A model generated the notes under the pieces. That model did no database searches and was not told the origin of the DNA. It saw only the letters and a list, made by a program, of their open reading frames with translations. A program made the position numbers and the translations under genes. A stretch of DNA of 64,000 nt from Thermoanaerobaculia bacterium (GTDB lineage Bacteria; Acidobacteriota; Thermoanaerobaculia; Multivoradales; UBA5704). Within the stretch, counting starts at the first letter, position 1; the number at the start of each line of letters is the position of its first letter. The DNA lies in assembly GCA_036275055.1 (NCBI GenBank), contig DASUEN010000083.1, forward strand, positions 19,187 to 83,186, read 5' to 3'. Of this stretch, positions 1,332 through 23,536 are shown piece after piece.

Positions 1332-2963
1332 GTGCTCAGCACCATGATGGATTTTCCGCTCACCATCCAGCACCTCTTTCGCCACGGCCGCCGGATCTAC
1401 GGCAAAAGCGAGGTCGTCACCTGGACGGGAGCCGAGCCGCGCCGGGTGAGCTACGCGCAGCTCGCGGAGCGCGCCGAGCGCCTCGCCGCCGCCCTGAAGC
1501 GGCTCGGCGTCAGAGAGGGCGATCGCGTCGGCACCTTGCAGTGGAACAACCAGGAGCATTTCGAGGCGTATCTCGCCGTGCCGTGCATGGGCGCGGTGCT
1601 GCACACCCTCAACCTGCGCTTGTTTCCCGATCAGCTCGCCTACATCGTGAACCATGGCGAGGACAAGGTGCTGATCGTCGATAGCTCGCTGATCCCGCTC
1701 CTCGTGCGGGTCAAGGATCACCTAAAAACCGTCGAGCATTTCATCGTCGCCGGCGAAGGGGACGCGTCGGCGCTGGGCGACGGCGCTCTCCGTTACGAGG
1801 AGCTGATCGCCGCGGAAGCGCCCGGCTTCGCGTGGCCCACGCTCGACGAGCGCGCCGCGGCCGCGATGTGCTACACCACGGGCACGACCGGCGATCCGAA
1901 GGGCGTCGTGTACTCGCACCGCTCGATTTTCCTCCACTCCTTCGGCGTCGGGCACGCCGCGGCCGTGCCGTTGACGGAAAAGGACCGCGTGCTGCCGATC
2001 GTCCCCATGTTCCATGCCATGTCGTGGGGGCTCCCCTACGTCGGCTGGTCGTGCGGCACGGGTTTCGTCATGCCCGGCCCGTTCCTCCAGGCGGAGCCGC
2101 TGGCGCAGATGATCGCCGCCGAAAAGGTGACCTATGCGGCGGCCGTGCCCACGATCTGGAACGACCTGCTGCGCTTCATGGATCAGAACCCAACCGATCT
2201 CTCTTCGCTCACCATGATCACCTGCGGCGGCGCCGCCGTGCCCCGCGCGCTGATCGAAAGGTTTCAGGAGAAGACGGGCGTCTGGATCACACAAGGATGG
2301 GGGATGACGGAGACCTCGCCCATCGCGGCGCTCTCCTGGCCGCCTCGGGGCACGCCGGAGGAGGAGCAGGCCGAATGGCGGGCGAAGACGGGGCGGGTGG
2401 TCGCGGGCGTCGAGCTGCGCATCACCGGCGACGACGGCGGCGAGCTGCCATGGGACGGCCAAGCCGTGGGCGAGATCGAGGTGCGCGGCCCGTGGGTCAC
2501 CGCTTCGTACCACCGCAACCCCGCCCCGGAGCGCTTCCACGACGGCTGGCTGCGCACCGGCGACGTGGGATCGGTCGATCCGCACGGCTTCATCCAGATT
2601 TCGGACCGCGCGAAGGACGTCATCAAATCCGGCGGCGAATGGATCTCCTCGGTCGAGGTCGAAAACAAGATCATGGGGCACCCTCACGTGATCGAGGCCG
2701 CGGTGATCGGCGTCCCCGATCCCACCTGGGACGAGCGCCCCCTCGCCTGCGTGGTGCTGAAAGACGGCGCTCCGCGCGACGCCGCGGCCCTCCGCGCCTT
2801 CCTCGACGGAACGGTATCTCCGTGGTGGCTGCCCGAGCGCTGGACGTTCGTACCGGAGATTCCGCGGACCTCGGTGGGGAAATTCGACAAGAAGGTCTTG
2901 CGGACGAGGTACGCTAACGGCGAGCTCGAGATCGTGACGCTGGAGGGGTCGGCGCGGGAGTGA
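1332..2963 (+). CDS. AMP-dependent acyl-CoA synthetase (long-chain fatty acid-CoA ligase type)
   Basis: AMP-binding motifs [61 protein letters not shown] and a C-terminal GKFDKKVLR. Start placed at the in-frame GTG 1332, 7 nt after AGGAGG (1319..1324). ATG 1344 is the alternative. The upstream part of ORF 1038..2963 is not protein-like. Confidence 0.85.
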
Positions 2964-3474
2964 GCAGCGGATACGGGTTTCGCGCCTCGCCGTCCACGTA
3001 GATCCCGTAGTGCAGATGGGTCGGCGTCCCCTGGGCGTTGCCGGAATCTCCCACGTAGCCGAGGACCGTCCCCACCTCCACCCAGTCGCCGACGGCCGGC
3101 GTCTCCCACTCGTCCAGGTGGGCGTAGTAGTGAGACCAGCCGGCGGGGCCGAAGACGGTCACCGTCCTCCCTCCCAGCCGGTTCCAGCGCTTGTGCACCA
3201 CGACGCCCTGCGTGGCGGAGTGAATGGGGGTCCGCCGGGGCGCGAAGATGTCGATCCCCTCGTGCTTGCGCCCCTCGGAGCGGGCGGCGCCCCAGGTGTC
3301 CTCCAGGTCGGACGCCACGACTCCCTCGACGGGGATGGGCAGCGACGACGGCGGCGGCTCGCGCCACAGCTTCACCACGCGCGGCAGGTGGCGCAGATAA
3401 GGATAGAACCAGAGGAAGAGGAAGAGCAGCAACGCCAGTGCCGCCAGCCGGAGGAGGACCCTGCGCCAACTCAC
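2914..3474 (-). CDS. M23 family metallopeptidase, membrane anchored
   Basis: N-terminal hydrophobic anchor LLRLAALALLLFLFLWFY. M23 motifs HEGIDIFAP ... GWSHYYAHL ... GDSGNAQGTPTHLHYGIY. Confidence 0.85.
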   Translation of the reverse strand: MSWRRVLLRLAALALLLFLFLWFYPYLRHLPRVVKLWREPPPSSLPIPVEGVVASDLEDTWGAARSEGRKHEGIDIFAPRRTPIHSATQGVVVHKRWNRLGGRTVTVFGPAGWSHYYAHLDEWETPAVGDWVEVGTVLGYVGDSGNAQGTPTHLHYGIYVDGEARNPYPLLTPAPTPPASRSRARR

Positions 3475-3500: not shown

Positions 3501-4085
3501 ATGCTGCACCTGCTCCTCTTGCTTTTCGCCGCTCCCCCCTTCCCGGGCGTCCTCCACCCGACGCCGACGGGTGACGTCTGGGTGGAGATGGTCGCCGCCG
3601 GAGCCGGCAAGCCGCGGGAGGGAATCGGCCGCGGGGTGATCGAGGCGCCGCCGGAGAGGGTATACCGCGCCCTCACGGATTACGCCCACTGGCAGGAGTT
3701 CATTCCCTACTTGCAGCAGTCGGACGCCCGGCCGCAGGCCAACGGCTCGGTGCTGAGCCGGCACGTGATGGTCCTCCCCTCCCCCCTCGGCGAGCGCCGC
3801 TACCGCGTCCGCTTCACCCAGGGCATCGAGACGGGTCCGGACGGAAAGGCTTGGTGGCTCCGCTTGAGCTACGTGCCAGGCTCGGGGAACGTCACCGCCC
3901 TCCAGGGCTCGTGGCGGCTGACGGCTCTGGGGGGAGGGCGCACCTTGGGCGTCTGCCGCCTGCTCATCGACCCCGGCGGCTTCACCCCGCGCTGGGCCGT
4001 GGACAGCGGCACGGAGGGGACGCTCGCCTGGATCTTCCACGGCCTGCGTCAGCACGTGCGCCGTTCCCGATACGACGGCTCCTGA
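3501..4085 (+). CDS. Secreted SRPBCC/START-fold (polyketide cyclase/dehydrase-like) protein
   Basis: Signal-like N-terminus MLHLLLLLFAAPPFPG. The segment ERVYRALTDYAHWQEFIPYL is typical of SRPBCC domain starts. Good GC3 bias. Confidence 0.55.
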   Translation: MLHLLLLLFAAPPFPGVLHPTPTGDVWVEMVAAGAGKPREGIGRGVIEAPPERVYRALTDYAHWQEFIPYLQQSDARPQANGSVLSRHVMVLPSPLGERRYRVRFTQGIETGPDGKAWWLRLSYVPGSGNVTALQGSWRLTALGGGRTLGVCRLLIDPGGFTPRWAVDSGTEGTLAWIFHGLRQHVRRSRYDGS

Positions 4086-4139: not shown

Positions 4140-5342
4140 GTGGCAGGGCTCGCCATGAAACCAGAAGAGAAGCAGAACGTCCTCGCGCTGGAAGCCCATC
4201 TCGGCACCGAGCTGCACCGGCGGTCCACGGAGCTGACCCGCGCCTGGCTCGACCGCCTGATCGCGCGGCTGGACGTCCATCCCCGCCGCATCTTTCCCAC
4301 CGACGCGCTGCTCAACCACATCCCCGAGGTGCTGCGGGCGATCTCCGACTACCTCTGCTCCGACGGCGACCTCGAGCACGAGGAGCTGCTGCGCACCGAG
4401 TTCGGCAAGCTGGCGCGGCTGCGGCGGGAGCAGGGGTACGACATCGACGAGATCCTGGCCGAGTTCGAGATCCTGGGCGAGATCCTCTACGACGCGCTGC
4501 GGGAAGAGGCCCGGCGCTTCGGGCGCAAAGTGCCCCCCGACTACGCCATCGAAGTGGCCGAGCGCCTCTTCCGGTCGCTGACGGCCATCACCACCATCAC
4601 GGCCACCACGTTTCGCGAGGAAGGGTTCCGCGACCGCCGGGACCGGGCGCGGCTCCTGGGCGGCTTCGGCCGCGAGCTGGCGCACGAGCTGCGCAACCGG
4701 CTGAGCACGGCCGAGGCGGCCCTCCACCTGCTGGGCAACGAGAGCCTCGAACCGGCCACGCGGGAGCGGACGCTGCGCACCCTGCGCAACACCCTGCAGC
4801 GGATCAAGGGCGTAGCGGACGACGTGCACTCGCTGGCCATCGCCCAGGGGAGCGAGGAGGGAGCGCAAGGAAGGAGGTTGTCGCTGCGCACCCTGCTCGA
4901 CGAGGTGGTCGAGGAGCTGCGGGGGATCGCGGACGAGAGCGCGGTGCGCATCGTGGTCCGCGAGCCCATCCCCGACGTGCAGGTGGACGCCATCCGGGTG
5001 GAGCTGGCGCTGATCAACCTGGTGGGCAACGCCGTCAAGTACTCCGACCCGCAGGAGGAGGACCGCTGGGTGCGCATTGCCGTCCAGCGGCACGAGGAGG
5101 GCTACTGGCGCCTCTCCGTCTCGGACAACGGCATGGGGATTCCGGACGAGATGCAGGACCGGGTCTTCGAGCAGTTCGTCCGCGCCCACCCCGGAGTCGC
5201 GGACGGCACCGGCCTGGGTCTCTCGATAGCCCGCTCCGCCATCGAGCAGATGGGAGGCCGCATCTGGCTCGAAAGCGAGCCGGGAGTCGGCACCACCTTC
5301 CACTTCACCGTGGTGGACCCGCCGGCGGCGCGGGAGGACTGA
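4140..5342 (+). CDS. Cytoplasmic sensor histidine kinase (no adjacent response regulator)
   Basis: H-box FGRELAHELRNRLST, N-box LINLVGNAVKYS, G-boxes SDNGMGIP and GTGLGLSIARSAIEQMGGRIWLESEPGVGTTFHF. No obvious transmembrane segment. Confidence 0.8.
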   Translation: MAGLAMKPEEKQNVLALEAHLGTELHRRSTELTRAWLDRLIARLDVHPRRIFPTDALLNHIPEVLRAISDYLCSDGDLEHEELLRTEFGKLARLRREQGYDIDEILAEFEILGEILYDALREEARRFGRKVPPDYAIEVAERLFRSLTAITTITATTFREEGFRDRRDRARLLGGFGRELAHELRNRLSTAEAALHLLGNESLEPATRERTLRTLRNTLQRIKGVADDVHSLAIAQGSEEGAQGRRLSLRTLLDEVVEELRGIADESAVRIVVREPIPDVQVDAIRVELALINLVGNAVKYSDPQEEDRWVRIAVQRHEEGYWRLSVSDNGMGIPDEMQDRVFEQFVRAHPGVADGTGLGLSIARSAIEQMGGRIWLESEPGVGTTFHFTVVDPPAARED

Positions 5343-5457
5343 GGTTGAAGCCTGTGGATCGCCGGACAAATCTTGCATGGCTACCCCGTCGGGGGTTGCT
5401 TTCCCCTGCCACTTCGCGCATGGTGGTAGAGGCATCGTCCCACGGGAGGACAAGATC

Positions 5458-5706
5458 ATGAGCGAAGAGCTGAAGACCTTTCTTCAGAGCCTCCGCACGA
5501 AACCTGAGCTGCTGGAGGAGCTGCGATCCTTGATTCGGGACCCGGACGCGGCGGTCCAGTGGGCTCGCGAGCAGGGATGTCACCTGACGCCGGAGGACGT
5601 CGCCGAGCTCCAGGGTGATGATGAGGAGCTCTCGGACGACGAGCTTGACAAGGTGGCTGGCGGCGACGACGGATGGCCGCCACCCCCGCCACCGCCGGGC
5701 CCTTAG
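5458..5706 (+). CDS. Nif11-like leader RiPP precursor, 82 aa, predicted core DDGWPPPPPPPGP
   Basis: ATG 5458 lies 7 nt after GGGAGGA. The N-terminus MSEELKTFLQSLRTKPELLEELRSL...AAVQWAREQGCHLTPEDV matches the Nif11-domain leader pattern. The leader ends ELSDDELDKVAGG (double-glycine site), followed by 13 residues and a stop. Confidence 0.75.
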   Translation: MSEELKTFLQSLRTKPELLEELRSLIRDPDAAVQWAREQGCHLTPEDVAELQGDDEELSDDELDKVAGGDDGWPPPPPPPGP

Positions 5707-5726
5707 GCTTCGTCGCGACGCAGGCA

Positions 5727-6749
5727 ATGGCATCCGTCCCATCCCCCGCCTATGACGACTGGCTGCGGGTGGTCAGACGGCATCTTACTCCGCCGCTTTG
5801 CAGTCTTTGGGCCCTGGATCGCCTGCACACTCTCGCCGCTCATCTCCCGGGAGATTGCCTGGGAGCCCTCGAAGCCCACCTGGGAAAGAGGGGCGGCGAC
5901 GTCGATCTGTCGATCCGTTTCACCGAGCCCGGCCAAGGCCGCCGAATGGCGGAGCAGCCCCTGCCCGCCCACCTGCGCAGCTTCCTCTCCCAATGGTCCC
6001 AGCCGGAAGGTCCGTTCTCCAGCATCCCCTGCATCTGGCTGGAGTTCGACCTGGATCGGCCGGTGGGGGACTTTCCGGTGCCATCGGTCTGCGCCCGGCT
6101 GCCGCGGGACGCCGACCTGGACTGGATCGTCGAGCTCTTGCTGCCGGCCCTGCATGGCGAGCCTCTGGGCGCAGCCCAGACCGGCCTGGTCCGGCGCTGC
6201 CACGGCGAAATCCCCGAGGAGGGCATCCTCCTCTACGTCTTCGGCCTGCTCTCCCGGCCGGGGAATCCGATACGGCTGGAGATCTTCGGGCTGGACCCGG
6301 CCGGCGCGGTTGCCTACCTGCGCCGCGTGGCGCCCCACGCCGCTCCTGCGCTGGCCGAGATCGCGCCGATCTTCGAAGGGATCGACAGGCCCCACCTGTC
6401 CCTCGACATGGGTGCTGAGATCCTGCCACGGGTGGGATTGGAAGGCTCCTTCGCCCGGCAGCGCGAACCCCGCTGGACGGAGCTCCTGGCCCGTCTCGTG
6501 GCCCGGGGCCTCTGTACGCGCGAGGAGATGGACGCCATCCTGGCCTGGCCGGGGTACGACACCCTCTGGACGGCTGCGGCGGACTGGCCCCTGGAGCAGG
6601 CCGGCGTGGGGGGATTCTGCGTGCGCAGCTTGAGCCACGTTAAAGTCGTCGCGCAACCGGGACGGGCGCCGGAGGCGAAGGTCTACTTGCTGGTCTCTTC
6701 TTTGGCCGGAGCCAAGTCGCCGGCAAGGCGGTCGGTCTTCTCGACGTAG
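5727..6749 (+). CDS. Hypothetical protein, candidate maturase of the Nif11 precursor (family not recognised)
   Basis: The ORF 5673..6749 has strong GC3 bias. Start placed at ATG 5727 (MASVPSPAYDDW), 21 nt after the precursor stop. I recognise no catalytic motif. See the finding on its repeated beta-hairpin/helix pattern. Confidence 0.55.
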   Translation: MASVPSPAYDDWLRVVRRHLTPPLCSLWALDRLHTLAAHLPGDCLGALEAHLGKRGGDVDLSIRFTEPGQGRRMAEQPLPAHLRSFLSQWSQPEGPFSSIPCIWLEFDLDRPVGDFPVPSVCARLPRDADLDWIVELLLPALHGEPLGAAQTGLVRRCHGEIPEEGILLYVFGLLSRPGNPIRLEIFGLDPAGAVAYLRRVAPHAAPALAEIAPIFEGIDRPHLSLDMGAEILPRVGLEGSFARQREPRWTELLARLVARGLCTREEMDAILAWPGYDTLWTAAADWPLEQAGVGGFCVRSLSHVKVVAQPGRAPEAKVYLLVSSLAGAKSPARRSVFST

Positions 6750-9700
6750 ACTCGCAGCCCCAGCTCCGCGAACGTCCGGCGAGCCTCGCCAAGTTGCCAC
6801 GCCGCCCCATTGGACCCTGCGCCGGCCGCCAGCGCCAGATCGAGCCGCGTGCGGGCCACCTCGAAGGGGGCCGCGATGGCTTTAAAGCTCTCCACGGCCT
6901 CGCCGAGCCACCTCTCCGCCTCTTCCCGGTCGCCGGCCGCGCGGGCGATGCGGCCCAGGGCGCGCTGGGCCATGCCGCTGCCGTAGCGGAACCGGACCTC
7001 TTCGGTGACGGCGAGCGCCTCGCGGGCGAGCACCCGGGCCTCGTCCGGGCGGTCCGAGAGGAGGCGGGCCTCGGCAAGAAAGGCGGAGAACCAGCCCAGG
7101 AGCTGCTTCATGCCGGCCCGGCGCAGCCGCTCCACGGAACCCTCCAAGGCCTCGGTCGCCTTCGGGAGATCCCCCTTCTCCAGATAGGCGTAGCCGAGGA
7201 AGCCCAGGGCTGCGGCAGTGTTGAGGGGGTCTTGGGCCCGCTCCAGCCCGCCCTTGCACTCCTCGATTCCCCGCTCGTACTCTCCCAGAGAAGCGTGGAA
7301 ATAGCCGGTGCTCCAGGATGGGTCGAGCCGGGGATCCTGGAGGGCGCGCCAGGCGGCCTCGGCCTTCTCCATCCTGCGGAACGCCTCGCCGAACTGTCCC
7401 AGGACGTAGTGATGGAATCCCGCCACCCAGTAGGCCTGCCCCTGCCACCAGCGGTCCGCGCTCCGCTCCAGCAGGTCGACCGCTTGCCGGCCATGCTCGA
7501 TCCCCTCCGAGAACCGGCCCGACCAGAAGGCATCGCGGCAGAGCACGTACCAGGCCCGTCCTTCCGTGATCGCGTCGCCGGAGCGCCGTGCCGCCTCGAT
7601 GGAGAGGCGGGCATTGGCCGCAGCCGCTTCCTGGTCGCCAAGGTAGCTATAGGTGTGGGCGAGCCAGAAGTGATAGCGGCCCGCGAGCGTTGAGTCCTGC
7701 AGACGGTCCAGGAGATCCCGCTCGGCGAGGAAAAGCTCCAGGGTCTCGGGGAAGCGGGCCAGGGGGAAGAGAGATTCGGCCAGGAGCAGGACCAGCTCCA
7801 TGCGCCGCCGGTCCGCCTCCGTCTGCGGCAGGCGCTCGCAGTGCGCCAGAGCCTCCCGCAGGGCCCTTTCCGCTTCAGCGTGGGCGTACCGGCGGGCCGC
7901 CTGAGCGGCGAAAAGGGCCAGATAGGAGACCGCTTTCCCGGCCTCGCCGGCCTCGGAGTAGTGATAGGCCAGAGCGTCGTAGACATCCTCCAGCCGCCCC
8001 GCGAAGAGCGACTCGAAAGCTTGCCCGGCAGCCGTATGCAAAGCCTGCCGCCGGCCCGTCAGCAGAGTTTGATAAACCGCCTCCTGGGTCAGGGCGTGTT
8101 TGAACAGGTACCGGGGCTCTTCCGCCGTCGGCTCCTCATAGAGGAATTCCCAACGCTTGAGGTCCGAGAGCAGAGATGGCAGATTGTCGACCTGCTCCCA
8201 GACCGCCGCCAGCAGGTTCAAGGGGAACTCCCGCCCAAGCACGGACGCCGTCTGAAGGAGCCGCTTGTGGTCGTCCGGCAGCCGGTCGATGCGGGCCATG
8301 ACCACTCCCTGGATCGTGTCGGGAACCGAGACGCCCGGATGCTCCAGTAAAGAACGAGCCAATTCCTCCAGGAAGAAGGGATTCCCCTCCGCTTTGCCGC
8401 GCACCTCGGCTACCAGATTCTCAGGGAGCTCGGCGCGGCGGAGCACGGCGCGGACGACCGCCTCGCTCTCCGCGTCTGTCAGCCGGGCGAGGGAGATCTG
8501 GGTGGCATTCGACTTCTCGATCCAGGGCGGCCGATAGCCGGAGCGGTAGGTGGCGATGAGCAGAACGTGAGCGGCGAACAGCCCTTCCACCAGCAGGGAG
8601 AGGAAATCCTCCGAGGTACGGTCCACCCAGTGGAGGTCCTCGATCTCCAGCACCACCAGCCGGCGGCGCGATTCGTTGAGGATAGCCTGCCGCAACAGCC
8701 GGAAAGTCCGGGTTTGCAAAGCCTGGGGGCTCAGCTCGGCGAGCGCCTCCGTGCCTTCCCGGATGCCGAAGAGATAAAGGACGTAGGGCAGAGCCTCCGC
8801 GACCTCCATCTCAGCCCGTCGCAGGCCGGCCATGACCTTGGCGACAACCGCAGCGGCGTCATCAGCCTCGCCGATCTCCCAGGCGTTGCGGAGCATGTAG
8901 AGGATGGGCAGGTAAGGTACGCCGCTGGTGTAGGAGAGGCACCGCCCCGCCAGGTGGAGGACCGGCCGGTTCCATAACCGCCGCCGGAATTCATAGACCA
9001 GCCGGGACTTTCCGGAGCCTGCTTCCGCCGCAATACCCACCACCTGCCCCTCCCCGGCCGCTGCCCGTTCGCGCAGCTCCTCGAGGATAGCCATCTCCCG
9101 CCGGCGGCCGACGAACGGCGAGCGGGCCGTGCTGCCGAGGACGGCATCCTCGGACTGGAGGAGGAGGCCCACACCCATCAGCCGGAACGCCCGCACCGGC
9201 GTCTCCTTCCCCTTGACCTGAAGCGGCGGTATCGCCTCCAGCCGGGCGGAGCCCTGAAGGAAGCGGCTCGTGTCCTCGCTCACCAGGATGGCCCCAGGCT
9301 CGGCGAGCTGTTGGAGCCGGGCGGCGAGATTGGTCGTATCGCCGATGGCCGTGTAGTCCCGGCGGAGCTGATCGCCGATGCCGCCCACCACCACCCAGCC
9401 GGTGTTGATCCCCATGCGGAACCGGAGCTCCACACCGCCGCGCTCCCCGAGCTCGGCGTGATGCTCCGCGAGCAGCTTCTGGAGGCCGAGAGCGGCGAGA
9501 GCCGCGCGGCGGGCGTGGTCCTCGTGGGCGATGGGAGCCCCGAACAGGGCCATGAAGCCATCCCCCAGGAACTGGTTGATGGTCCCCTCGTAGCGGTGGA
9601 CCTCGGAGAGGGCCAGCTCGAAGAACCGGTTGAGGAGGAGATGCATGGTCTCCGGCCCCAGCCGCTCGGCCAGGGAGGTCGAGCCGACGAGGTCGCAGAA

Positions 9701-10045
9701 GAGGACGGTGACCTGCTTGCGCTCCCCCTCAAGGGCGGATTTGGACTGGAGGACCTGGGCGGCGAGATGGGAGGGCGTATAGCTTTGGACTGGAGAAGCG
9801 AGGCGGGGTGCTTCAGGGGGCGGCGGAGGGGGGAGCGCCTCCGCCTTGGCCGCCCCGAGGGGGGAGCCGCACTCGCCGCAGAACTTGAAGCCGGGGAGGT
9901 TCTCAGTGCCGCACTGCGGGCAGAGGGCGGCCAGCTTCGCGCCGCACTGGCCGCAGAACTTCATGCCGGCGGGGTTGTCGAACTGGCAGTGTGGGCAATG
10001 CATGGGTTGTGGCGGTGGTTCGCAGGCCAGATTACCTTCACCCAC
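6683..10045 (-). CDS. Class III adenylate/guanylate cyclase fused to an AAA/STAND ATPase and TPR-like region, with N-terminal double zinc ribbon
   Basis: Zinc ribbons CPHCQF..CGQCG..CPQCG..CGECG. Cyclase core ERKQVTVLFCDLVGSTSLAE...FLGDGFMALFGAP...GINTGWVVVGG. P-loop AAEAGSGKSRL. Long helical-repeat C-terminus. The start is either GTG 10045 or ATG 10003 and is not resolved. Confidence 0.85.
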   Translation of the reverse strand: MGEGNLACEPPPQPMHCPHCQFDNPAGMKFCGQCGAKLAALCPQCGTENLPGFKFCGECGSPLGAAKAEALPPPPPPEAPRLASPVQSYTPSHLAAQVLQSKSALEGERKQVTVLFCDLVGSTSLAERLGPETMHLLLNRFFELALSEVHRYEGTINQFLGDGFMALFGAPIAHEDHARRAALAALGLQKLLAEHHAELGERGGVELRFRMGINTGWVVVGGIGDQLRRDYTAIGDTTNLAARLQQLAEPGAILVSEDTSRFLQGSARLEAIPPLQVKGKETPVRAFRLMGVGLLLQSEDAVLGSTARSPFVGRRREMAILEELRERAAAGEGQVVGIAAEAGSGKSRLVYEFRRRLWNRPVLHLAGRCLSYTSGVPYLPILYMLRNAWEIGEADDAAAVVAKVMAGLRRAEMEVAEALPYVLYLFGIREGTEALAELSPQALQTRTFRLLRQAILNESRRRLVVLEIEDLHWVDRTSEDFLSLLVEGLFAAHVLLIATYRSGYRPPWIEKSNATQISLARLTDAESEAVVRAVLRRAELPENLVAEVRGKAEGNPFFLEELARSLLEHPGVSVPDTIQGVVMARIDRLPDDHKRLLQTASVLGREFPLNLLAAVWEQVDNLPSLLSDLKRWEFLYEEPTAEEPRYLFKHALTQEAVYQTLLTGRRQALHTAAGQAFESLFAGRLEDVYDALAYHYSEAGEAGKAVSYLALFAAQAARRYAHAEAERALREALAHCERLPQTEADRRRMELVLLLAESLFPLARFPETLELFLAERDLLDRLQDSTLAGRYHFWLAHTYSYLGDQEAAAANARLSIEAARRSGDAITEGRAWYVLCRDAFWSGRFSEGIEHGRQAVDLLERSADRWWQGQAYWVAGFHHYVLGQFGEAFRRMEKAEAAWRALQDPRLDPSWSTGYFHASLGEYERGIEECKGGLERAQDPLNTAAALGFLGYAYLEKGDLPKATEALEGSVERLRRAGMKQLLGWFSAFLAEARLLSDRPDEARVLAREALAVTEEVRFRYGSGMAQRALGRIARAAGDREEAERWLGEAVESFKAIAAPFEVARTRLDLALAAGAGSNGAAWQLGEARRTFAELGLRVYVEKTDRLAGDLAPAKEETSK

Positions 10046-10154
10046 CAGTCGCCGTGCTCTTAGCAGTTAACGCCTAATCCTACACGCCAAAACGAAGCGT
10101 AGGAGAATTATACCCTTGGCCTTGCTCTGGAAGCCACGAATTTAGAACCAAGAA

Positions 10155-10185
10155 GTGGGCATTCGGCTACTCTCCTCATGCCCAC
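10155..10185 (-). terminator. Candidate intrinsic terminator downstream of the island precursor gene
   Basis: On the minus strand: GTGGGCAT, a 15-nt loop, ATGCCCAC, then TTCTTGGTTCT. It starts about 45 nt after the stop at 10231. Confidence 0.4.
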
Positions 10186-10230
10186 TATCTCCCGATGTGT
10201 GCAATAGCACGGCCTAATAACAGACAGTCA

Positions 10231-10443
10231 CTAGGTATCCCTAATGGAGTCAAACGCCTCCGACTGACCAATACCAGTTCTCTCAGGGTGGTCACAGTAC
10301 GTAATCACTCCTCCTCCTCCTCCATCTACTGGTTCCAGTTCCATACCCCCAGAAACGCCCTCAAGCGCCTCATCTGTCAACGGAGCCTGGAACAGTTCGT
10401 CATCAATGTTCTCCATCTTTGGATCCCTTGCCTCTAGCTCCAT
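10231..10443 (-). CDS. Double-glycine leader RiPP precursor (70 aa) of the ATP-grasp/SPASM island
   Basis: ATG at 10443 lies 6 nt after AAGGAG on the minus strand. The leader MELEARDPKMENIDDELFQAPLTDEALEGVSGG is followed by the core MELEPVDGGGGGVITYCDHPERTGIGQSEAFDSIRDT, which is rich in Thr/Ser and Asp/Glu (ATP-grasp cross-link partners) and has one Cys. Confidence 0.65.
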   Translation of the reverse strand: MELEARDPKMENIDDELFQAPLTDEALEGVSGGMELEPVDGGGGGVITYCDHPERTGIGQSEAFDSIRDT

Positions 10444-11046
10444 GAGTAACTCCTTTGCTCTGCGGCAGGTCCAATACCTGCGCACCTCCTACTCTAAGCC
10501 CCAGCGAACTCCCTGTCAATCCTAAAAAAGCGCTAAGGGAGGCGACCCGAGATCAGGACCTGCAAGACAGCGTTAAATATACTCTCATCGGAGATTTTTC
10601 GCCGTACTGGAAAACCTGCCACGAGCGTCGATCAACTCATCGGCCGGCTCGTCAGGAAAGCCGGCCGGAAACGCGTGCAGCACATCGGCGAAGGCCAGGC
10701 CTCCCCACCAAACGAAGCAAGCCAGCATCGCGGGGGAGCATTCCCCTGTCTTCTACTCTCTCTTGCTGCCACCTGAATCAGGACTACGGGGTGGAATTTG
10801 TCGAACTCGCTGAAGCCTCCTGCGGCGGCGAAGAGACTAAGACTGCTCACCAACTACTCCTCCGGTCTAGGGCCAGCATCGCCTCAGACACCAGGGTCGA
10901 CTCCTCGCGAGCCGTCAGGTCTATCGACTACGGGTAGTCTTAAACGCAAAGGGCAGAATGCCCTAGGCCCGCCGAAGCCTTGCCTCACCCCCAGGGGTGC
11001 ACGACTCCACGAGCCGCACGGTGGTGCGGATCACGGCTTTATGCTG

Positions 11047-11075
11047 TTGCCTGTACACGAATGTCCTAGTATGCT
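11047..11075 (+). promoter_or_regulatory. Candidate sigma70-type promoter upstream of the ATP-grasp gene
   Basis: TTGCCT (11047..11052), 17-nt spacer, TATGCT (11070..11075). This would give a 5' UTR of about 165 nt. Sequence match only. Confidence 0.25.
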
Positions 11076-11244
11076 ACGCTTATGTTCCGGAACTCACCGG
11101 CAGCACTGCTCCGGGAAAGTCAGCGTCTCGCTTTAGCACCGGCCACTGACTAGCCCCATGCCGGGTTCGGGATGGATTTACTTTAGCCAAGCAGGGCCGC
11201 TGTGATCGCCCGCAGCGTTCCGGCAAGGTCAATCCTGAGAGGAA

Positions 11245-12291
11245 ATGGCTACTATTATGTCACTGTATAATGCTCAAGAGGGCTCAATCCTAATTCTCAG
11301 CCAAGGTTCAGGAGAAACCACAACAGATATTGTCATGGAGTACCTGTTCCGCATGGGCCTATCGCCATTGCGCCTCAACGGAAGTGACCTTGATAGCCAG
11401 GGTAATTTTAGCATAGTTCTCAAGACGGGCGAAGCGGAGATAGATATCGAGGAATTCAAGGTTAATCTGCATCAGATTCAAGTAGTCTGGTTCCGCCGAT
11501 GGTCGGAGCGGCAGCCATTCCAAGGAATCAATATGCTTTCGGAAAATTCGCCAGAGAGTCACGATGTCTCCCAACGCGCCGCCGAACACCTTTCATCAGA
11601 ATTACGGAGGATCAGCTCTTTCCTTTTTTCCGAACTAAAACATGCAATATGGCTTAGCCACCCAAGCACTGCGAGCCCAGACAAGCTCAGAACATTAAAG
11701 CTTGCAGCAAGCGTCGGACTCTCAACACCCCACACATTAGTGACTACAAGCAGAAAACGGTTGCTACAATTCGCCCATCACCATCCCCTAATCACAAAGG
11801 CGATCGGTGATGTCGATTTTTTCCAGATAGGGTTCACCGCTCATCTAATGTACACCCAGGAACTTTCGGCAGACCTACTCGATGCACTTCCGGAAAAATT
11901 TTTCCCCTCATTATTTCAAGAAAAGCTAGAGAAACGGTATGAGCTAAGAATTTTCTACCTTGCCGGGAATTGCTATACATCAGCAATATTCTCGCAATCG
12001 GACCCCAAAACATCTATCGATTTTAGGAAATATAATCATAAAAAACCCAATAGGGTGGTGCCCTATAAATTAGAAGCTGACATGGAAGACAAAATTAGAC
12101 ACCTAATGGACTTATTAGAACTCGAAACAGGTTCACTCGATCTAATTAAGACAATCGACGGGCGCCTTGTCTTTCTCGAGGTTAACCCAATCGGCCAATT
12201 TGGGATGGTCTCTTCCCCTTGCAATTATCATCTAGAGCATAGGGTCGCCGAGTTCCTCGCGGAGAAAATCAACAATGCAAGACCTAGATAA
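11245..12291 (+). CDS. ATP-grasp ribosomal peptide maturase (grasp-with-spasm type)
   Basis: Matches to MdnC-like RiPP ATP-grasp ligases as I recall them: ILILSQGSGETTTDIVMEYL, DKLRTLKLAASVGLSTPHTLVTTS, FQEKLEKRYELRIFYLAGNCY, IDFRKYNHKKPNRVVPYKL, GSLDLIKTIDGRLVFLEVNPIGQFG. Confidence 0.85.
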   Translation: MATIMSLYNAQEGSILILSQGSGETTTDIVMEYLFRMGLSPLRLNGSDLDSQGNFSIVLKTGEAEIDIEEFKVNLHQIQVVWFRRWSERQPFQGINMLSENSPESHDVSQRAAEHLSSELRRISSFLFSELKHAIWLSHPSTASPDKLRTLKLAASVGLSTPHTLVTTSRKRLLQFAHHHPLITKAIGDVDFFQIGFTAHLMYTQELSADLLDALPEKFFPSLFQEKLEKRYELRIFYLAGNCYTSAIFSQSDPKTSIDFRKYNHKKPNRVVPYKLEADMEDKIRHLMDLLELETGSLDLIKTIDGRLVFLEVNPIGQFGMVSSPCNYHLEHRVAEFLAEKINNARPR

Positions 12292-13558
12292 TTTCCTAAG
12301 TCAACTGAAGGAAGATGCAAGTAATTGGACGCCTGTCTCCTTCCGGACAACGAGCAAATCGGAACTGGAAGCATTACCGCTGTCTCGTTATGCGGAGTCG
12401 ACGCGCTACAGATCGGCACAATACAGATGCTTCAACTTCCACAAGCCTATATCAAGAATTTTTAAAGCTATCCCTCGCATAAAAAGAGGAAGTGAACTCC
12501 CCGAAACAGAGCGCACCCGACCGACGATCAACTCGACAGCCCCAGTTACGGACGAGCAAATTTTTCTCCTCTTTGCGTGTTGTGTGCCTGTAATGGGAGC
12601 TCGCCGAAGCATAATCTGCGATCTTCAACGAGGCGCCTTCCAGTTGATACCTAACGGCTTAGCCGAGATCCTCAAGCAGTATAGAGGAAAGACTCTCGCC
12701 GCGATCAAAGACGCCTACAAGCACCAATACGATGCTCAAATTGAGCGATATTTTGAGTTCTTGATAGAACTTGAGCTTGGTTTCTGGTGCGACGATATCG
12801 ATGCTTTCTCCGAGATCGATTTTAGCTGGGACGAGCCGGAGCGTATAACTAATGCGCTCATTGATGTCGACGAGCGATCTGAGCACGACTTCGGTGTTAT
12901 CCTAAGAGATCTCGACGATCTAGGTTGTAAAGCGCTTCAGGTACGCTTTTATTCTGGCGGGCGAATTCTGCAACTCCGCGAACTACTTACGGCAGCCAAG
13001 GGTACCTGCTTGCGCTCAATTGAGCTAGTCGCACCATTTCACAGTGAAGACACCGATCAAGACTACATCCGGATGTACCTCGACTTTCCGCGCATCAGCC
13101 GCCTAATAATTCATTCCGCTCCCGATGATCGTGAACTCAAAACGGAACGCTCTCATGTACCGCTTATCTATAGAAGAATGATAATTGACTCCTCCTCTTG
13201 CTGCGGGGAGGTGCACCCCTCGTACTTCGTCACGCAGATCTCTACCTTTTCCGAGGCTCAAACCTTTAACACCTGCCTGAACCATAAGATTTCTATCGAT
13301 AGATGTGGAGAGATTAAAAATTGCCCCTCTTTACCGTACTCGTGTGGAAACATCCGGGACACTTCTCTACATAGTGCTTTAGCTCAGAGCGACTTCAAAC
13401 AACTGTGGGCTATAAATAAAGACCAAATCGAGATATGTAAGGATTGTGAGTTTCGGTATATCTGCGTCGATTGCCGGGCATACTTATCACGCCCGGAAGA
13501 TCGCTTCTCAAAGCCTGCGAAGTGTACTTATGATCCGTATTCTGCCCAATGGCGATAA
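12275..13558 (+). CDS. SPASM-domain peptide maturase partner of the ATP-grasp enzyme, lacking a canonical radical-SAM CX3CX2C motif
   Basis: The ATG overlaps the ATP-grasp stop by 17 nt. The C-terminal Cys-rich SPASM pattern is CLNHKISIDRCGEIKNCPSLPYSCGNI ... ICKDCEFRYICVDCRAY ... KCTYDPY. The N-terminal half has only ACCVPVMGARRSIIC. Confidence 0.8.
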   Translation: MQDLDNFLSQLKEDASNWTPVSFRTTSKSELEALPLSRYAESTRYRSAQYRCFNFHKPISRIFKAIPRIKRGSELPETERTRPTINSTAPVTDEQIFLLFACCVPVMGARRSIICDLQRGAFQLIPNGLAEILKQYRGKTLAAIKDAYKHQYDAQIERYFEFLIELELGFWCDDIDAFSEIDFSWDEPERITNALIDVDERSEHDFGVILRDLDDLGCKALQVRFYSGGRILQLRELLTAAKGTCLRSIELVAPFHSEDTDQDYIRMYLDFPRISRLIIHSAPDDRELKTERSHVPLIYRRMIIDSSSCCGEVHPSYFVTQISTFSEAQTFNTCLNHKISIDRCGEIKNCPSLPYSCGNIRDTSLHSALAQSDFKQLWAINKDQIEICKDCEFRYICVDCRAYLSRPEDRFSKPAKCTYDPYSAQWR

Positions 13559-13821
13559 ATGTAAACTCGACCTTCCTCAACGTCGGCGGTGCTTACAACC
13601 AATACAGCCGTTTAAGTAATTTGTAGACAGAGCGGAGCGGCGATCTCGCAGCCACCGAGTGACAGAAACAGAGAGGCTTTTCCAGCCCAAACAGTGCCCG
13701 ATCGATGCAGAGCCAAATGAACCTATCCTCGAGACGATCAAGCTGGGTCAGACCCTGGCACGCAACAATTGCTTGGCCAAACCGCTCGCTGGAAAGCAGT
13801 CTGCGTCCAGCGTCGATGAGG

Positions 13822-14436
13822 CTACGTCACCATAATCTTTTTCACCATTCTGCCGAACCGCTCCCCCGCCAGGTAGACGCCGTCGAACACGTTCGCGTCC
13901 AGCTCATCGGCGTCATATTCCTCCTCCTCACCGTCCACAACCACCCCTGTGCCAAGGTCGCGGTGCAGCTCCCGGACCGTCGCCCTTGGAGAGCGCGAAA
14001 ACCGTCGAGTCCTCCAGGGCTTTGACCGTGGCGGAGGGGGCCCGGGCGTCCACGAAGGACATCTCGTCCACGATCTCGCCGGCGTTGAGGCGGGCGAGCT
14101 CCCTCTCCGGTCCCCGGTGGGGCCGGAGGGAGACGGCCAGCCTTCCTTCCAGCAGGATGAAGACGGAGTCCACCGGCACGCCCTGCTCGATGAGGGCGCC
14201 TCCCGCGGGGACGAACCGCTTCTGGCCAGCGCGGAGCATCCACTCCCCTGCTCGGTGACCCGTCCTCCCTTGATGACGTAGATGCGGTCGGCGTTCTGGA
14301 TGGTGCTCAGGCGGTGGGCGATGACGATGCGTGTAGCCTTCAGGCGCTCCAGTTTGCGGCTGACGATCTCCTGGGTACGGTTGTCGAGGGCGCTCTCGTG
14401 GCCTCGTCGAAGAGAAGGATGCGCGGTCGGTGCACG
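13822..14436 (-). pseudogene. Decayed duplicate of the exporter operon 3' end (cNMP-binding protein plus C-terminus of the second ABC ATPase)
   Basis: Collinear nucleotide similarity to 20085..20895 with two internal deletions. Translated fragments: DGVYLAGERFGRMVKKIMVT, MLRAGQKRFVPAGGALIEQGVPVDSVFILLEGRLAVSLRP...LARLNAGEIVDEMSFVDARAPSATV, and NRTQEIVSRKLERLKATRIVIAHRLSTIQNADRIYVIKGGRVTEQG. The fragments lie in different frames. Confidence 0.75.
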
Positions 14437-14667: not shown

Positions 14668-17487
14668 ATGACGATGGGTTTTTCTTTGATTACACGCTCC
14701 GACGACGCACTGGGCGAAGGCTTCCGGGAAGACTCGGCCTCTCCTGCGGGCCTGTCCGCCCCCCCGGTGGTCGTACGGATCGCGGGCCTCCCTGCACAGG
14801 CTCTCGAGCCCCTCACGAGCCCCTCCTGCGTCGCGCTGCTGCAAGCCCGCGAGCCTCTCAAGGAGGAGATCGGAGACGCCAGGCGATCGATGGCCGAGGC
14901 GATCGGCAACGCCCTTCCGAGGTTCGACGCTACGATCCGCGGCTTTTTGCTCACGATAAAAAGGAACTGCTTCAACGGTCGTGCCATCGAGCCGCTCCGC
15001 AGGAAAGCGGAGTGGGCCGAGCTTCTCCAGGTCTCGCCGGACCTGGCGGAGCGCATCGTGGCCCTCGAAGAGCAGCTCGACGAGAACGACCGTGCGCTCG
15101 CCACCCTTTACGAGAGCGAGCTCACTCGCGAACGGCGCCACGTCCTGACGCTGGCGGAGGATCGCCGTTTTCTCCGTGGCATTGCCCTGGGAAGACCCGG
15201 CCTGGTGGAGAAAATCCGCGCTCGGGCCCCTTCTCTCGCCGCTTCGGGATCTCTGAGAAGTCCGGAGAAGTGGGAACAGAGCCTCCTGCGTTTCGTGACC
15301 CGGGCCGCGGCGAAGCTGTCCGCCAACTCGACGCTCACCGCCTACGGTCTGGGGAGCATTCAAGACTCCCCGTCCCCGGTGGGCTTACGGTTCGCCGGCT
15401 CTCCTCAACGGGAGGTTTCCCTGGTGCGCGTCAACCGCCCGGAGCTCGAGCAGCTCCAGGCGCTCCTGCTGCGGCACCCGGCGGTGCGAGAGCGCGCTCT
15501 CGTCGCCTGGAACGACAGCCTCGAGGAGCTCGAGCCCGGCCAATATCGTTTCCTGCGCGATGGCCACTGGAAGCTCGAGCCCGGAGCGGAAGAATTTCAC
15601 TTCGTTCTGCCCGCGAGGGTCAAGGTGACGCTTTCCAACGCGGTGCTGGGCACTGCCCGAGAGGCCCTGCGAGTGTGTACGCTCCGCTACGACGCCCTCT
15701 TGGCGCTGCTGGAAGACCGGCACGGGATTTCGGCCGGCGAAACGACCGCTCCGCCGATTCGGAGTGCCCTCGACCAACTCGTCGATCTCGGGCTCCTCAT
15801 CCTCATGCCGCCCTGGCCGACTCACGAAGCTCGGTTGGAGCAGCGGATCGGACGGTTCCTTCGCGCCCTGCCCGGCGAGCCTACCCTGCGCGCGACGGCA
15901 GACGCCCTGGACGAGCTTCTGGCACTCGAAGCGGGCTTCGCTTCGGCTCCTCGGCCCGAGAGCTCGGTCGCCGCCATGGAAGACGCCTTCTCGCGGCTTC
16001 TCAACACGGTCGTCCATCTGGCCGGGCACGAGGGTCCTCTCGCCACCCGGGCACACTTCTTCGAAGACGTGCTCCTGGAAGCAGCAGTCAGCTCCGGCGA
16101 CGATCGGGGAATCTTCCAAATCGCGTCACAGATGGCTCAGGAGATCCTTCAGACCGCACGGCTGGTCTCGCGCTTTGCCGGCCTGTTCAACGTTCGCCAC
16201 GACGTCCTGCACACCCTGGCCGCTTGGTGGCGGGAGCATGAGCCGAGGCGGCGAGAGGTCCCTTTCACCGAGATTGCTCGCGGGTTCGCCCCTCTTTGGA
16301 AGCAGTTCTTTCAATTCCACAAGACCGCGAACGAGGATGCCCTCAATACCTTCGACCCCCTGCACACGGACTCGCTCGAAAGGCTGCGGGAGAGGCGGGC
16401 AACGCTTCTCGCCGAATCCCGGGAGTTGCTGAGCACCTCGCCAACGAAGGACTTCCTGTCGTCGCGACAGCTCGCGGAGATGGTGGAGCCTCTACCCCGC
16501 CGCTATGCCCCCCAACTGGGCACGTGCGTCTTCATCCAACCCGTGGATGCCGAGGGTAACTCTTGGGTGCTCAACCGCCTACACGAAGGCACGGGGCGGT
16601 ATCTGAGCCGCGTCACTCCGATCCTGGAAGGGCCTCGGCAGCAGCGCTTCCTCAACCACCTCATCGCGAGATCGGTGGTCGAGTTGGAGGGAGAGGAAGC
16701 GGATCTCCTCGAGGTCAAGTATCCGTGGAGCCACCTGGTGAGAGCTCACCCGCCTCAGGCGGCAAAGGTCTTGGACCTCCGGGGACTGCACCTCGGCCTG
16801 CCGCCAGAGCGGAGGGTCGGCCTCGGCGATCTCACGATCCAGGCGGATCTCGATTCCGAAACCTTCCGATTGATCGACCCTTCGGGGCGCCGCGTGCTTC
16901 CTGTCAGCCTGAGCACCTTGTCCGACGCCGGGCTCCCGAACCTCCTGCGCTTTCTTCTGGCGTTCGGACCGGGCGAGACCCGTGCCGTCTTTCCGCTCAA
17001 CTCCTGGGAGGGCGAGGAGGATTTCAGATCCTTCCACCGCTTGACCTGCGGCACGCTGGTCCTGCGCCGCCATCGTTGGACGATCGGTATCGAGAAGCTC
17101 CGCGGTGACCTGGAAGCTCTTTCCGGCTTGCGAGCTTACGTTGCCATCCACGATTGGCGCCATCGGCTGGGCCTGCCGGCGGTGGGCTTCTACTACGAGC
17201 TCTCGTACCAGGGGATTCTCAAGCCGCAGTACGTCGATTTCCGCTCGCCGTCGCTGTGCCGGCTTTTCGTCGCCAGCCTGCAAAAGATGGCAACCGGGCA
17301 CCTGACCCTCGAGGAAGCCCTGCCGTCGCCCGCCGACTTCCCCTTCGACGCTTCGATGAACCGCCGAGGCTTCGAGCTTTTGATCGATAGTTTGGCGATC
17401 CGTACCGTGAACGGAAATTGCTCCGCCTGGGTACCGGACCGCAACCGAGAGAGTCTCTCTCTCAGAAGGGAAGTACAACATGTCTAA
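14668..17487 (+). CDS. Lantibiotic dehydratase, N-terminal (glutamylation) part only: split LanB, 939 aa
   Basis: N-terminal PPVVVRIAGLPAQALEPL and C-terminal FYYELSYQGILKPQYVDFRSPSLCRLF resemble Lant_dehydr_N family proteins. The size matches thiopeptide-type split dehydratases. There is no elimination domain at the C-terminus. Confidence 0.7.
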   Translation: MTMGFSLITRSDDALGEGFREDSASPAGLSAPPVVVRIAGLPAQALEPLTSPSCVALLQAREPLKEEIGDARRSMAEAIGNALPRFDATIRGFLLTIKRNCFNGRAIEPLRRKAEWAELLQVSPDLAERIVALEEQLDENDRALATLYESELTRERRHVLTLAEDRRFLRGIALGRPGLVEKIRARAPSLAASGSLRSPEKWEQSLLRFVTRAAAKLSANSTLTAYGLGSIQDSPSPVGLRFAGSPQREVSLVRVNRPELEQLQALLLRHPAVRERALVAWNDSLEELEPGQYRFLRDGHWKLEPGAEEFHFVLPARVKVTLSNAVLGTAREALRVCTLRYDALLALLEDRHGISAGETTAPPIRSALDQLVDLGLLILMPPWPTHEARLEQRIGRFLRALPGEPTLRATADALDELLALEAGFASAPRPESSVAAMEDAFSRLLNTVVHLAGHEGPLATRAHFFEDVLLEAAVSSGDDRGIFQIASQMAQEILQTARLVSRFAGLFNVRHDVLHTLAAWWREHEPRRREVPFTEIARGFAPLWKQFFQFHKTANEDALNTFDPLHTDSLERLRERRATLLAESRELLSTSPTKDFLSSRQLAEMVEPLPRRYAPQLGTCVFIQPVDAEGNSWVLNRLHEGTGRYLSRVTPILEGPRQQRFLNHLIARSVVELEGEEADLLEVKYPWSHLVRAHPPQAAKVLDLRGLHLGLPPERRVGLGDLTIQADLDSETFRLIDPSGRRVLPVSLSTLSDAGLPNLLRFLLAFGPGETRAVFPLNSWEGEEDFRSFHRLTCGTLVLRRHRWTIGIEKLRGDLEALSGLRAYVAIHDWRHRLGLPAVGFYYELSYQGILKPQYVDFRSPSLCRLFVASLQKMATGHLTLEEALPSPADFPFDASMNRRGFELLIDSLAIRTVNGNCSAWVPDRNRESLSLRREVQHV

Positions 17488-17701
17488 GCCCAAGGATGCG
17501 AACCTGGAGATCGAGGCCCTTTCCGACGACGAGCTCGAGTCAGTCAGCGGAGGCAATACCACCACCAACTCGGGCGGCACCTGCACCACCAACGCGGGCG
17601 GCGTCTGCAGCACCGCTATCAACGGCGGCTGCACCACCAACACGGGTGGCACCTGCACCAACCTCCCAGCCCAACCCGCACAACAACTGAACGCCGACTG
17701 A
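17480..17701 (+). CDS. RiPP precursor, 73 aa, double-glycine leader plus Thr/Cys/Asn/Gly-rich core
   Basis: Leader MSKPKDANLEIEALSDDELESVSGG, then core NTTTNSGGTCTTNAGGVCSTAINGGCTTNTGGTCTNLPAQPAQQLNAD. The ATG overlaps the LanB-like stop by 8 nt. Confidence 0.75.
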   Translation: MSKPKDANLEIEALSDDELESVSGGNTTTNSGGTCTTNAGGVCSTAINGGCTTNTGGTCTNLPAQPAQQLNAD

Positions 17702-17715
17702 TGAATTGACCAGCC

Positions 17716-17733
17716 TGCCCTCGATCGTGAGGG
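17716..17733 (+). terminator. Weak hairpin just after the precursor gene (possible attenuator or RNA-stabilising structure)
   Basis: GCCCTC, loop GATCGT, GAGGGC, 15 nt after the stop. There is no U-tract, so this is not a strong terminator. Confidence 0.25.
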
Positions 17734-17766
17734 CGGGTTGGTCCCGTCCGCTAGAGAGGTTACGCG

Positions 17767-23532: not shown

Positions 23533-23536
23533 GGCC

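Follow-up and report, generated by a model that had tools for sequence, protein, structure and literature searches.

In this work we describe a gene at positions 5727-6749 (forward strand) of a 64,000-nucleotide stretch of Thermoanaerobaculia DNA (contig DASUEN010000083.1; hereafter the window), and we propose that its product lipidates a short peptide encoded directly upstream. Structure prediction (AlphaFold2, Foldseek) and homology searches (hhalign, BLASTP) indicate that the 340-amino acid (aa) protein is very probably a soluble peptide prenyltransferase with the alpha-beta-beta-alpha (ABBA, or PT-barrel) fold, belonging to the MppC/NctPC family (in NctPC, to its P domain), and that it probably acts on the upstream precursor by the mechanism proposed below. 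The most likely target of this lipidation would be the sole Trp of the proline-rich peptide. The fold, and Trp prenylation on a Nif11-type precursor, are already known from enzymes of the MppC/NctPC kind. New here are the linear, Cys-free cores without a paired macrocyclase, the occurrence in the phylum Acidobacteriota, and a conserved partner protein that combines cyclase, STAND, and TPR domains.

A word-indexed search, in which 8000 candidates were scored, returned 279 homologous proteins at E <= 0.001, and an exhaustive search returned 1,794 representatives at 50% identity with E <= 1e-3, 838 of them below 1e-10. On the strength of these sequence matches we regard open reading frame (ORF) 5727-6749 as a real, conserved gene. 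Metagenome-assembled genomes of Thermoanaerobaculia/Acidobacteriota supplied the closest relatives. The 1,794 representatives are covered by no model in Pfam or NCBIfam, and family members are therefore annotated as "hypothetical protein" in every source record. An alternative start codon (ATG 5673) would give a longer protein and overlap the upstream precursor gene. In many related loci, the prenyltransferase frame opens just 4 nucleotides (nt) past the stop codon of the precursor, so that translation must begin beyond the precursor gene in those cases; by analogy with these loci, 5727 is the likely start. The G+C content of the window is high (about 0.68-0.70), and a scan of 5300-6900 for promoters and terminators found none. 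A literature search found no paper on this Acidobacteriota prenyltransferase clade.

An earlier note, made by eye from the sequence, had singled out five strand-turn-strand segments (residues 46-65, 102-125, 167-189, 223-242, and 300-323) and read them as five ABBA units with ten strands. We modeled the protein with AlphaFold2 on a 44-sequence homologue alignment, which gave a mean predicted local distance difference test score (pLDDT) of 93.2 and a predicted template modeling score (pTM) of 0.90. The model has ten main strands, paired as 45-51/59-65, 102-107/120-124, 167-173/182-187, 223-228/232-240, and 297-309/316-326, with successive hairpins separated by two helices each in an (alpha-alpha-beta-beta)x5 order; an extra short strand (276-278) and extra helices precede the last hairpin. 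All five segments are beta-hairpins in this model, to within 1-3 residues, and the proposed layout of five units and ten strands was reproduced. A Foldseek search against the PDB returned 60 matches at E <= 0.001. The best 50 of these, which are the ones listed, consist entirely of aromatic prenyltransferases of the ABBA type (E 4e-8 to 2e-4, probability 1.00), including AmbP3, AmbP1, FamD1, IptA, NphB/Orf2, LimF, CymD, DMATS1, PriB, AtaPT, PagF, NotF, PatF, and EpzP. The PT-barrel suspected in the note was thus the fold predicted, and no confident match to an unrelated family appeared in the Pfam, NCBIfam, and PDB sequence and family-profile searches. On the basis of the model, we have high confidence that the 340-aa protein adopts the ABBA aromatic prenyltransferase fold.

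The note had recognized no family signature. That holds insofar as no Pfam or NCBIfam model exists, although a characterized family, of the MppC/NctPC type, is now available. MppC from Moorena producens PAL is a leader-dependent Trp-C5 geranyltransferase of the alpha-beta-beta-alpha type, characterized in vitro (Wakeel, McShan & Agarwal, JACS 2025, PMC12715784). It geranylates MppE, a Nif11-leader precursor, at the indole C5 of Trp82, requires the whole leader, including its L(X)4L motif, prefers a lanthionine-cyclized core, and does not accept free L-Trp (PMC12715784). In the published similarity network, which is dominated by Cyanobacteriota, Myxococcota, and Pseudomonadota, MppC lies outside the cyanobactin prenyltransferases (PMC12715784). 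The second enzyme, NctPC, is a prenyltransferase-cyclase fusion in which Trp is geranylgeranylated and the chain is then cyclized (Hubrich et al., Chem 2024, via review PMC13290415).

We reached MppC through the MppE sequence given in the supplement of PMC12715784, which a sequence search traced to the encoding Moorena contig. The gene order of this mpp-type cluster (LanM, two arginases, the precursor, a 375-aa unannotated protein, a 716-aa amine-oxidase/SHC-like protein, and a Trp halogenase) agrees with the published mppM, A, B, E, C, D, I. Compared with our family profile, the 375-aa protein gave an hhalign probability of 100% (E 1.6e-54, 315 columns), and BLASTP aligned it directly with the 340-aa protein at 29% identity over 263 aa (E 6e-27). 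Its 90%-identity cluster includes WP_158516919.1 (390 aa) from the PAL strain, which has Trp at residue 336 and Phe at residue 340, as mutated in PMC12715784. Because these positions coincide with the published residues, we identify the 375-aa protein and WP_158516919.1 by sequence as MppC. The 354-aa and 289-aa proteins of the mpp-like cluster were rejected as MppC (hhalign probability <1%). WP_158516919.1 also matched our close-homologue alignment, with a probability of 99.8% (E 2.4e-27).

Some family members are fusion proteins. P0267 and P0206 carry a C-terminal match to the class II terpene cyclase MstE (PDB entry 6sbg, E 1e-65), and the N-terminal (P) domain of the P-C fusion is 31% identical to the 340-aa protein (E 1e-32). 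Three others (P0224, P0258, and P0266) are fused to a C-terminal CMAS-like S-adenosylmethionine (SAM) methyltransferase. Both fusion types point to isoprenoid chemistry, and the architecture of P0267 and P0206 links the family to isoprenoid chemistry on Trp. At the sequence level, then, the 340-aa protein is homologous both to MppC and to the N-terminal domain of MstE-like cyclase fusions, which share the NctPC architecture. A CMAS-fusion-type gene also occurs in one locus (L047, 6001-7911) after a 109-aa Nif11-like peptide that ends in ...KCSW, with a C-terminal Trp.

The note had drawn attention to Arg, Lys, and Tyr residues on several strands, and these proved to be conserved. In the alignment of close homologues, R183, K318, and Y320 are invariant and R64 is at least 90% conserved. 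In a wider family alignment, which reaches down to 27% identity, E49, D60, R177, R183, W250, and Y320 are invariant, and W90, W104, E106, D108, D227, E239, R300, H304, K306, and K318 are nearly so. Most of the conserved residues occupy i, i+2 positions on the strands of the AlphaFold2 model, and hhalign matched the conserved residues of the 340-aa protein in the MppC alignments. Placed in a PT-barrel, R183, R300, H304, K306, K318, and Y320, together with E49, D60, E106, D108, D227, and E239, would look like a diphosphate/Mg2+ site. The conserved F297 was aligned with MppC F340 by hhalign; BLASTP offsets the pair by one residue beside an 8-residue gap.

The predicted substrate is encoded by a gene at 5458-5706 (+), whose stop codon lies 20 nt before the prenyltransferase gene. 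The 82-aa product matched NCBIfam TIGR03798 (leader_Nif11, E 2.2e-13) and Pfam Nif11 (E 2.2e-6), as expected of a Nif11-type precursor of a ribosomally synthesized peptide with post-translational modifications (RiPP). Its start codon, ATG 5458, corresponds to M28 of a 109-aa ORF (5377-5706); homologous precursors begin at the same Met, and a Shine-Dalgarno-like GGGAGG (5444-5449, +) stands 8 nt ahead of it. L(X)4L and the Gly-Gly cleavage site both fall in ELSDDELDKVAGG, with which the 69-aa leader closes, and the leader end, EELSDDELDKVAGG, directly precedes the 13-aa core DDGWPPPPPPPGP (5665-5703, +). The single Trp that the note had seen in the adjacent core is present in the sequence. Encoded at 5674-5676, it is the only Trp of the core (DDG-W-PPPPPPPGP) and the predicted prenyl acceptor.

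To place this pair among its relatives, we used 42 genome loci and three loci found by exact look-up, two of which duplicate genome loci; counts out of 45 sources refer to 44 loci plus the window, and the precursor hidden Markov model was built from four precursors. This model detected a Nif11 precursor in 43 of the 45 sources, directly upstream of the prenyltransferase in all but L003 and L030, and the spacing between the two genes ranged from a 4-nt gap to a short overlap. The 43 precursors gave 41 distinct leader-end/core sequences. Every leader has a Gly-Gly site, the L(X)4L motif is present in 41/41, and exactly one Trp occurs in 41/41 cores, at core position 1-4 (position 4 in 22). No other core residue is conserved, making Trp the obvious acceptor. 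The cores are 5-27 residues long and are composed almost solely of G, P, T, D, and W, as in AWPPP, DGWPPA, DTAWPPPPTPPTEGG, and DWGTGTGTTTGGGGG; only two of the 41 contain Cys. The hypothesis of a Trp-prenylated, proline-rich peptide put forward in the note is supported, as a predicted activity, by this one Trp per core together with the homology to MppC. In one locus (L040, 7719-8219), the precursor frame continues into the prenyltransferase frame with loss of the Gly-Gly/core region, which reflects a frameshift, decay of the copy, or an error in assembly.

More distant family members also adjoin precursor genes. L048 has a Nif11 precursor and a LanM (core ...FLDNWGCVAE), L049 adjoins an NHLP precursor, and the lanthipeptide precursors of L050, L052, and L053 are of a "WCC" type with a short leader and are accompanied by LanB and JmjC genes. 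We located "WCC" precursors at L052 2345-2521 (GSGWCCDAAQ), L053 6180-6338 (...STWCCSDG...), and L009 2419-2793 (CSVWCCTNVAAV). In L052 and L053 they share a gene cluster with prenyltransferase homologues, LanB, and JmjC_2; the L009 precursor and the prenyltransferase gene are about 5 kb apart, and a LanB-like ORF is close by. The "WCC" precursors are a second, lanthipeptide-type substrate class for the prenyltransferase family.

We propose the following course of the reaction. As inferred from MppC, the leader of the 82-aa precursor, with its structured nucleus and acidic L(X)4L stretch, would dock on the enzyme and so place the sole core Trp at the open end of the ten-stranded barrel. A prenyl diphosphate would occupy the barrel lumen, held by R183, R300, H304, K306, K318, and Y320, with Mg2+ bound by E49, D60, E106, D108, D227, and E239. 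Following the general ABBA mechanism, loss of diphosphate would yield an allylic cation that alkylates the indole. The Gly-Gly leader would then be cut off and the linear lipidated Pro-rich peptide exported, probably via the Peptidase-C39 ABC transporter (PCAT), HlyD, and outer-membrane efflux protein (OEP) encoded 17 kb downstream. The catalytic steps, the donor length (C5 to C20), and the regiochemistry are extrapolated from MppC, NctPC, and general ABBA chemistry and may differ here.

Several observations weigh against this proposal. The 340-aa protein has no Pfam, NCBIfam, or PDB sequence match, whether searched as a single sequence or with two family profiles, and neither Pfam nor NCBIfam matched any of 56 family members; the family is invisible to these sequence libraries. 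The Foldseek TM-scores (template modeling scores) to solved ABBA structures are just 0.38-0.55, with a root mean square deviation of 7-9 Å and 9-16% identity, and at such values the similarity is at the level of the fold only. The lumen-facing orientation of the conserved residues is read solely from their i, i+2 spacing along the strands. The MppC helix with W336 and F340 falls in or beside the 8-residue gap relative to the 340-aa protein, so leader binding may differ from that of MppC. With neither Cys nor Ser nor Thr in it, the core DDGWPPPPPPPGP, unlike the substrate preferred by MppC, cannot be cyclized through lanthionine; the substrate rules therefore differ from those of MppC. The candidate exporter is 17 kb away, beyond inserted gene sets.

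It is also conceivable, although unlikely, that the protein belongs to this family and performs other chemistry, at indole N1, at C3 with pyrroloindoline formation, on an Asp carboxylate or the new N terminus, with a non-canonical donor, or on some other peptide of the region. Its identity to MppC is merely 26-29%, the cores are linear, unlike MppC substrates, and ABBA peptide prenyltransferases as a group modify Ser, Thr, Tyr, His, Arg, and Trp, in forward and reverse fashion (PMC12715784, PMC13290415). Against this, both characterized relatives, MppC and NctPC, modify Trp (PMC12715784, PMC13290415), and Trp is the sole invariant residue of the 41 distinct cores. The acidic residues ahead of it vary or are absent, with some cores beginning W or AW. 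Two further RiPP precursors do lie within the window, but they are Trp-free and have enzymes of their own. We judge it very unlikely that the barrel is catalytically dead and works only by binding the leader, as a chaperone or scaffold of the precursor, or by linking to the STAND protein as an adaptor. PatF of the patellamide pathway, an inactive ABBA-fold protein in a RiPP cluster, provides a precedent and is among the structural matches listed, and no dedicated prenyl diphosphate synthase lies beside the gene, the nearest being at 53217-54143. However, dimethylallyl, geranyl, and farnesyl diphosphate (DMAPP, GPP, and FPP) are ordinary cell metabolites, which makes a dedicated synthase unnecessary. 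Some 13 strand residues with charged or aromatic side chains stay invariant or almost invariant at identities as low as 27% and are common to the active MppC, a pattern expected for an active site and not for a scaffold.

The top structural matches (AmbP3, AmbP1, FamD1, and NphB) act on small molecules, which could be taken to mean that the gene encodes a small-molecule aromatic prenyltransferase of the NphB/CloQ or indole-alkaloid type, unrelated to the upstream peptide. We give this hardly any weight because the precursor accompanies the enzyme in nearly all sources, because even distant family members adjoin Nif11, NHLP, or lanthipeptide precursors, and because the homology detected by sequence is to MppC, which refuses the free amino acid (PMC12715784). 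Prenylation of the core Trp of the upstream precursor is the reading with which we compare known systems below.

Relative to MppC, the homology extends over about 310 residues (hhalign 99.8-100%), with an ABBA barrel in both proteins. In each cluster, a Nif11-leader precursor that carries L(X)4L and a Gly-Gly site is encoded immediately upstream, the acceptor Trp (predicted here) is within the first five core residues in both, and neither protein is matched by cyanobactin prenyltransferase models. The systems differ in that the MppC substrate is the LanM-cyclized heptapeptide ACWRWSG, whereas the core in the window is linear, Cys-free, and Pro-rich, with no paired macrocyclase; no dedicated lanthionine synthetase accompanies the prenyltransferase-precursor pair, and the LanB set of the window has its own Trp-free precursor. 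The MppC cluster contains a halogenase, arginases, and a terpene synthase and comes from Cyanobacteriota, in contrast to the Acidobacteriota clade with its conserved cyclase-STAND-TPR partner, and the W336/F340 leader-binding helix of MppC sits at the 8-residue indel. With NctPC, the likeness lies in P0267 and P0206, fusions of the same architecture that join an N-terminal domain related to the 340-aa protein to an MstE-like cyclase. The window has a stand-alone P domain with no adjoining terpene cyclase, and the link to NctPC is one of architecture, not of its sequence.

The cyanobactin prenyltransferases (PagF, LynF, KgpF, LimF, and PatF) share with the 340-aa protein the ABBA fold (Foldseek E 1e-5 to 2e-4) and ribosomal peptide substrates (predicted here), but they have no sequence similarity to it that was detectable in Pfam, NCBIfam, or profile searches. 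They act without a leader, on peptides already excised or cyclized, whereas leader-dependent action of the 340-aa protein is indicated by its homology to MppC and by the features of the leader. No PatA/PatG-like protease/macrocyclase was found among the window genes scanned. The predicted product, which is short, linear, and secreted with one prenylated Trp, would be chemically similar to the ComX pheromone of the ComQ/ComX system of Bacillus. ComQ and PalQ are, however, all-alpha enzymes resembling trans-isoprenyl-diphosphate synthases (PMC13290415), in contrast to the alpha/beta barrel modeled here, for which there was no polyprenyl_synt match. The srp proteusin/brominase system, which has a Nif11 leader and a C-terminal Trp, was rejected as a relative, as its cores (LCCCW) and enzymes are unrelated.

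The prenyltransferase gene has a convergent partner. At 6683-10045 (-), a gene for a 1120-aa protein with a double zinc ribbon, a class III adenylate/guanylate cyclase domain, an AAA_16 (STAND ATPase) domain, and tetratricopeptide repeats (TPR; all by Pfam) overlaps it tail to tail by 67 nt. A homologue of this protein occurs in 40 of the 45 sources. In about 33 of them it is encoded on the opposite strand, at most about 100 nt from the prenyltransferase end, and in one (L030) it lies within this distance on the same strand. On the other flank of the pair, the genes vary while the cyclase-STAND-TPR gene stays, and it is still nearby in the rearranged loci L003 and L030. In L050, a homologue (29% over 643 aa, E 6e-30) is convergent with, and overlaps, a 34%-identical prenyltransferase. 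On reading the sequence, the cyclase domain keeps FCDLVGST, GDG, and GDTTNLAARL, which we take to be the metal-binding and transition-state motifs of class III cyclases. We infer a role in sensing or regulation for the 1120-aa protein.

This partnership raises the idea, rather unlikely in our estimate, that a very short linear prenyl-Trp peptide with a polyproline or Gly/Thr tail is not an antibiotic but a diffusible, ComX-like signal whose receptor is the convergent cyclase-STAND-TPR protein. The peptide would bind the TPR sensor and trigger cAMP/cGMP synthesis, which would in turn act on a cyclic nucleotide (cNMP)-binding protein and the ABC/PCAT exporter. Compatible with such signaling, the prenyltransferase, precursor, and cyclase genes stay together through rearrangements and in the 34%-identical lineage, and some cores of the clade have just 5-6 residues (AWPPP and DGWPPA). 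TPR divergence tracks core class, with a partial Mantel r of 0.25-0.48 in which phylogeny is not fully controlled and rate differences confound; this co-variation is no more than suggestive. For the present peptide, a signaling role is speculation. If true, it would constitute a peptide-to-cyclic-nucleotide signaling circuit in Acidobacteriota based on an ABBA prenyltransferase, and the conserved cyclase-STAND-TPR link offers a testable lead to the biological role of the peptide.

Peptide lipidation enzymes are wanted as biocatalysts, and the first descriptions of the MppC/NctPC type date from 2024-2025 and concern only cyclized lanthipeptides from cyanobacteria. The locus in the window and about 40 relatives define an Acidobacteriota (Thermoanaerobaculia/Holophagales) clade of the same kind of enzyme with minimal linear Trp cores, from five residues upward. 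If the enzyme is active, it would provide a leader-guided Trp lipidation tool that needs no prior macrocyclization, as well as an uncommon natural-product lead from a phylum with poorly known chemistry.

The genes for the candidate exporter form one minus-strand run headed by a cNMP-binding protein (20085-20627, Pfam cNMP_binding E 1.8e-19). It continues with an ABC transporter (20638-23646), the PCAT (23537-25753; Pfam Peptidase_C39 E 6.9e-36, ABC_membrane, ABC_tran), HlyD (25753-27036), and OEP (26991-28538). The PCAT is a candidate for Gly-Gly leader removal and export, and the cNMP-binding protein, homologues of which occur in 10 of the 45 flank-limited sources, could possibly receive the cyclase output. 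In L002 and L010, the cNMP and ABC genes come directly after the cyclase gene, whereas about 10 kb of other RiPP genes intervene in the window. We also noticed a truncated copy of the cNMP-binding gene at 13928-14239 (-), 91% identical over 85 aa to 20085-20627 (-), at the edge of a low-GC island. This copy and the adjacency in L002 and L010 suggest that an insertion of RiPP genes, about 10 kb in all, has separated the cyclase gene from the cNMP/ABC exporter genes.

The island (10100-13800) has a GC content of 0.49-0.53, compared with about 0.68 around it. It contains a precursor-like ORF (10231-10485, -) with ...EGVSGG followed by a Gly-rich core without Trp, an ATP-grasp ligase of the MvdD type (11245-12291), and a protein with a SPASM domain that may be a radical SAM enzyme (12275-13558). 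The island resembles a graspetide-like RiPP cassette gained by horizontal transfer. Next, at 14668-20088, comes a separate gene set for a class I lanthipeptide. It comprises a LanB-like dehydratase (14668-17487), which has no Pfam match itself and whose homologues carry Lant_dehydr_N, a precursor (17480-17701) reading MSKPKD...ELESVSGG before a Thr/Cys-rich core without Trp, a JmjC_2 oxygenase (17767-19011), and, judging from its similarity to homologues, a Lant_dehydr_C-like protein (19003-20088, -). Both precursors, 17480-17701 and 10231-10485, were rejected as substrates of the prenyltransferase, as they have no Trp and enzymes of their own.

About 47 kb from the prenyltransferase are the sole isoprenoid-related genes seen in the window, a polyprenyl diphosphate synthase (53217-54143, -) and an Rce1-like CAAX-type intramembrane protease (55032-56048, -), which are probably housekeeping or unrelated genes. 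Directly upstream of the precursor lies a histidine kinase with an RsbRD_N sensor domain (4140-5342, +), preceded by genes for a 194-aa protein (3501-4085, +) and a 186-aa protein (2914-3474, -); roughly 17-21 of the 45 sources have these three together with the prenyltransferase. After the exporter genes comes a DUF7005 protein (28555-29712, E 5e-143). DUF7005 also flanks the Moorena mpp cluster that encodes MppC (L051, 18364-19533) and may be a recurring accessory gene of prenylated-RiPP clusters.

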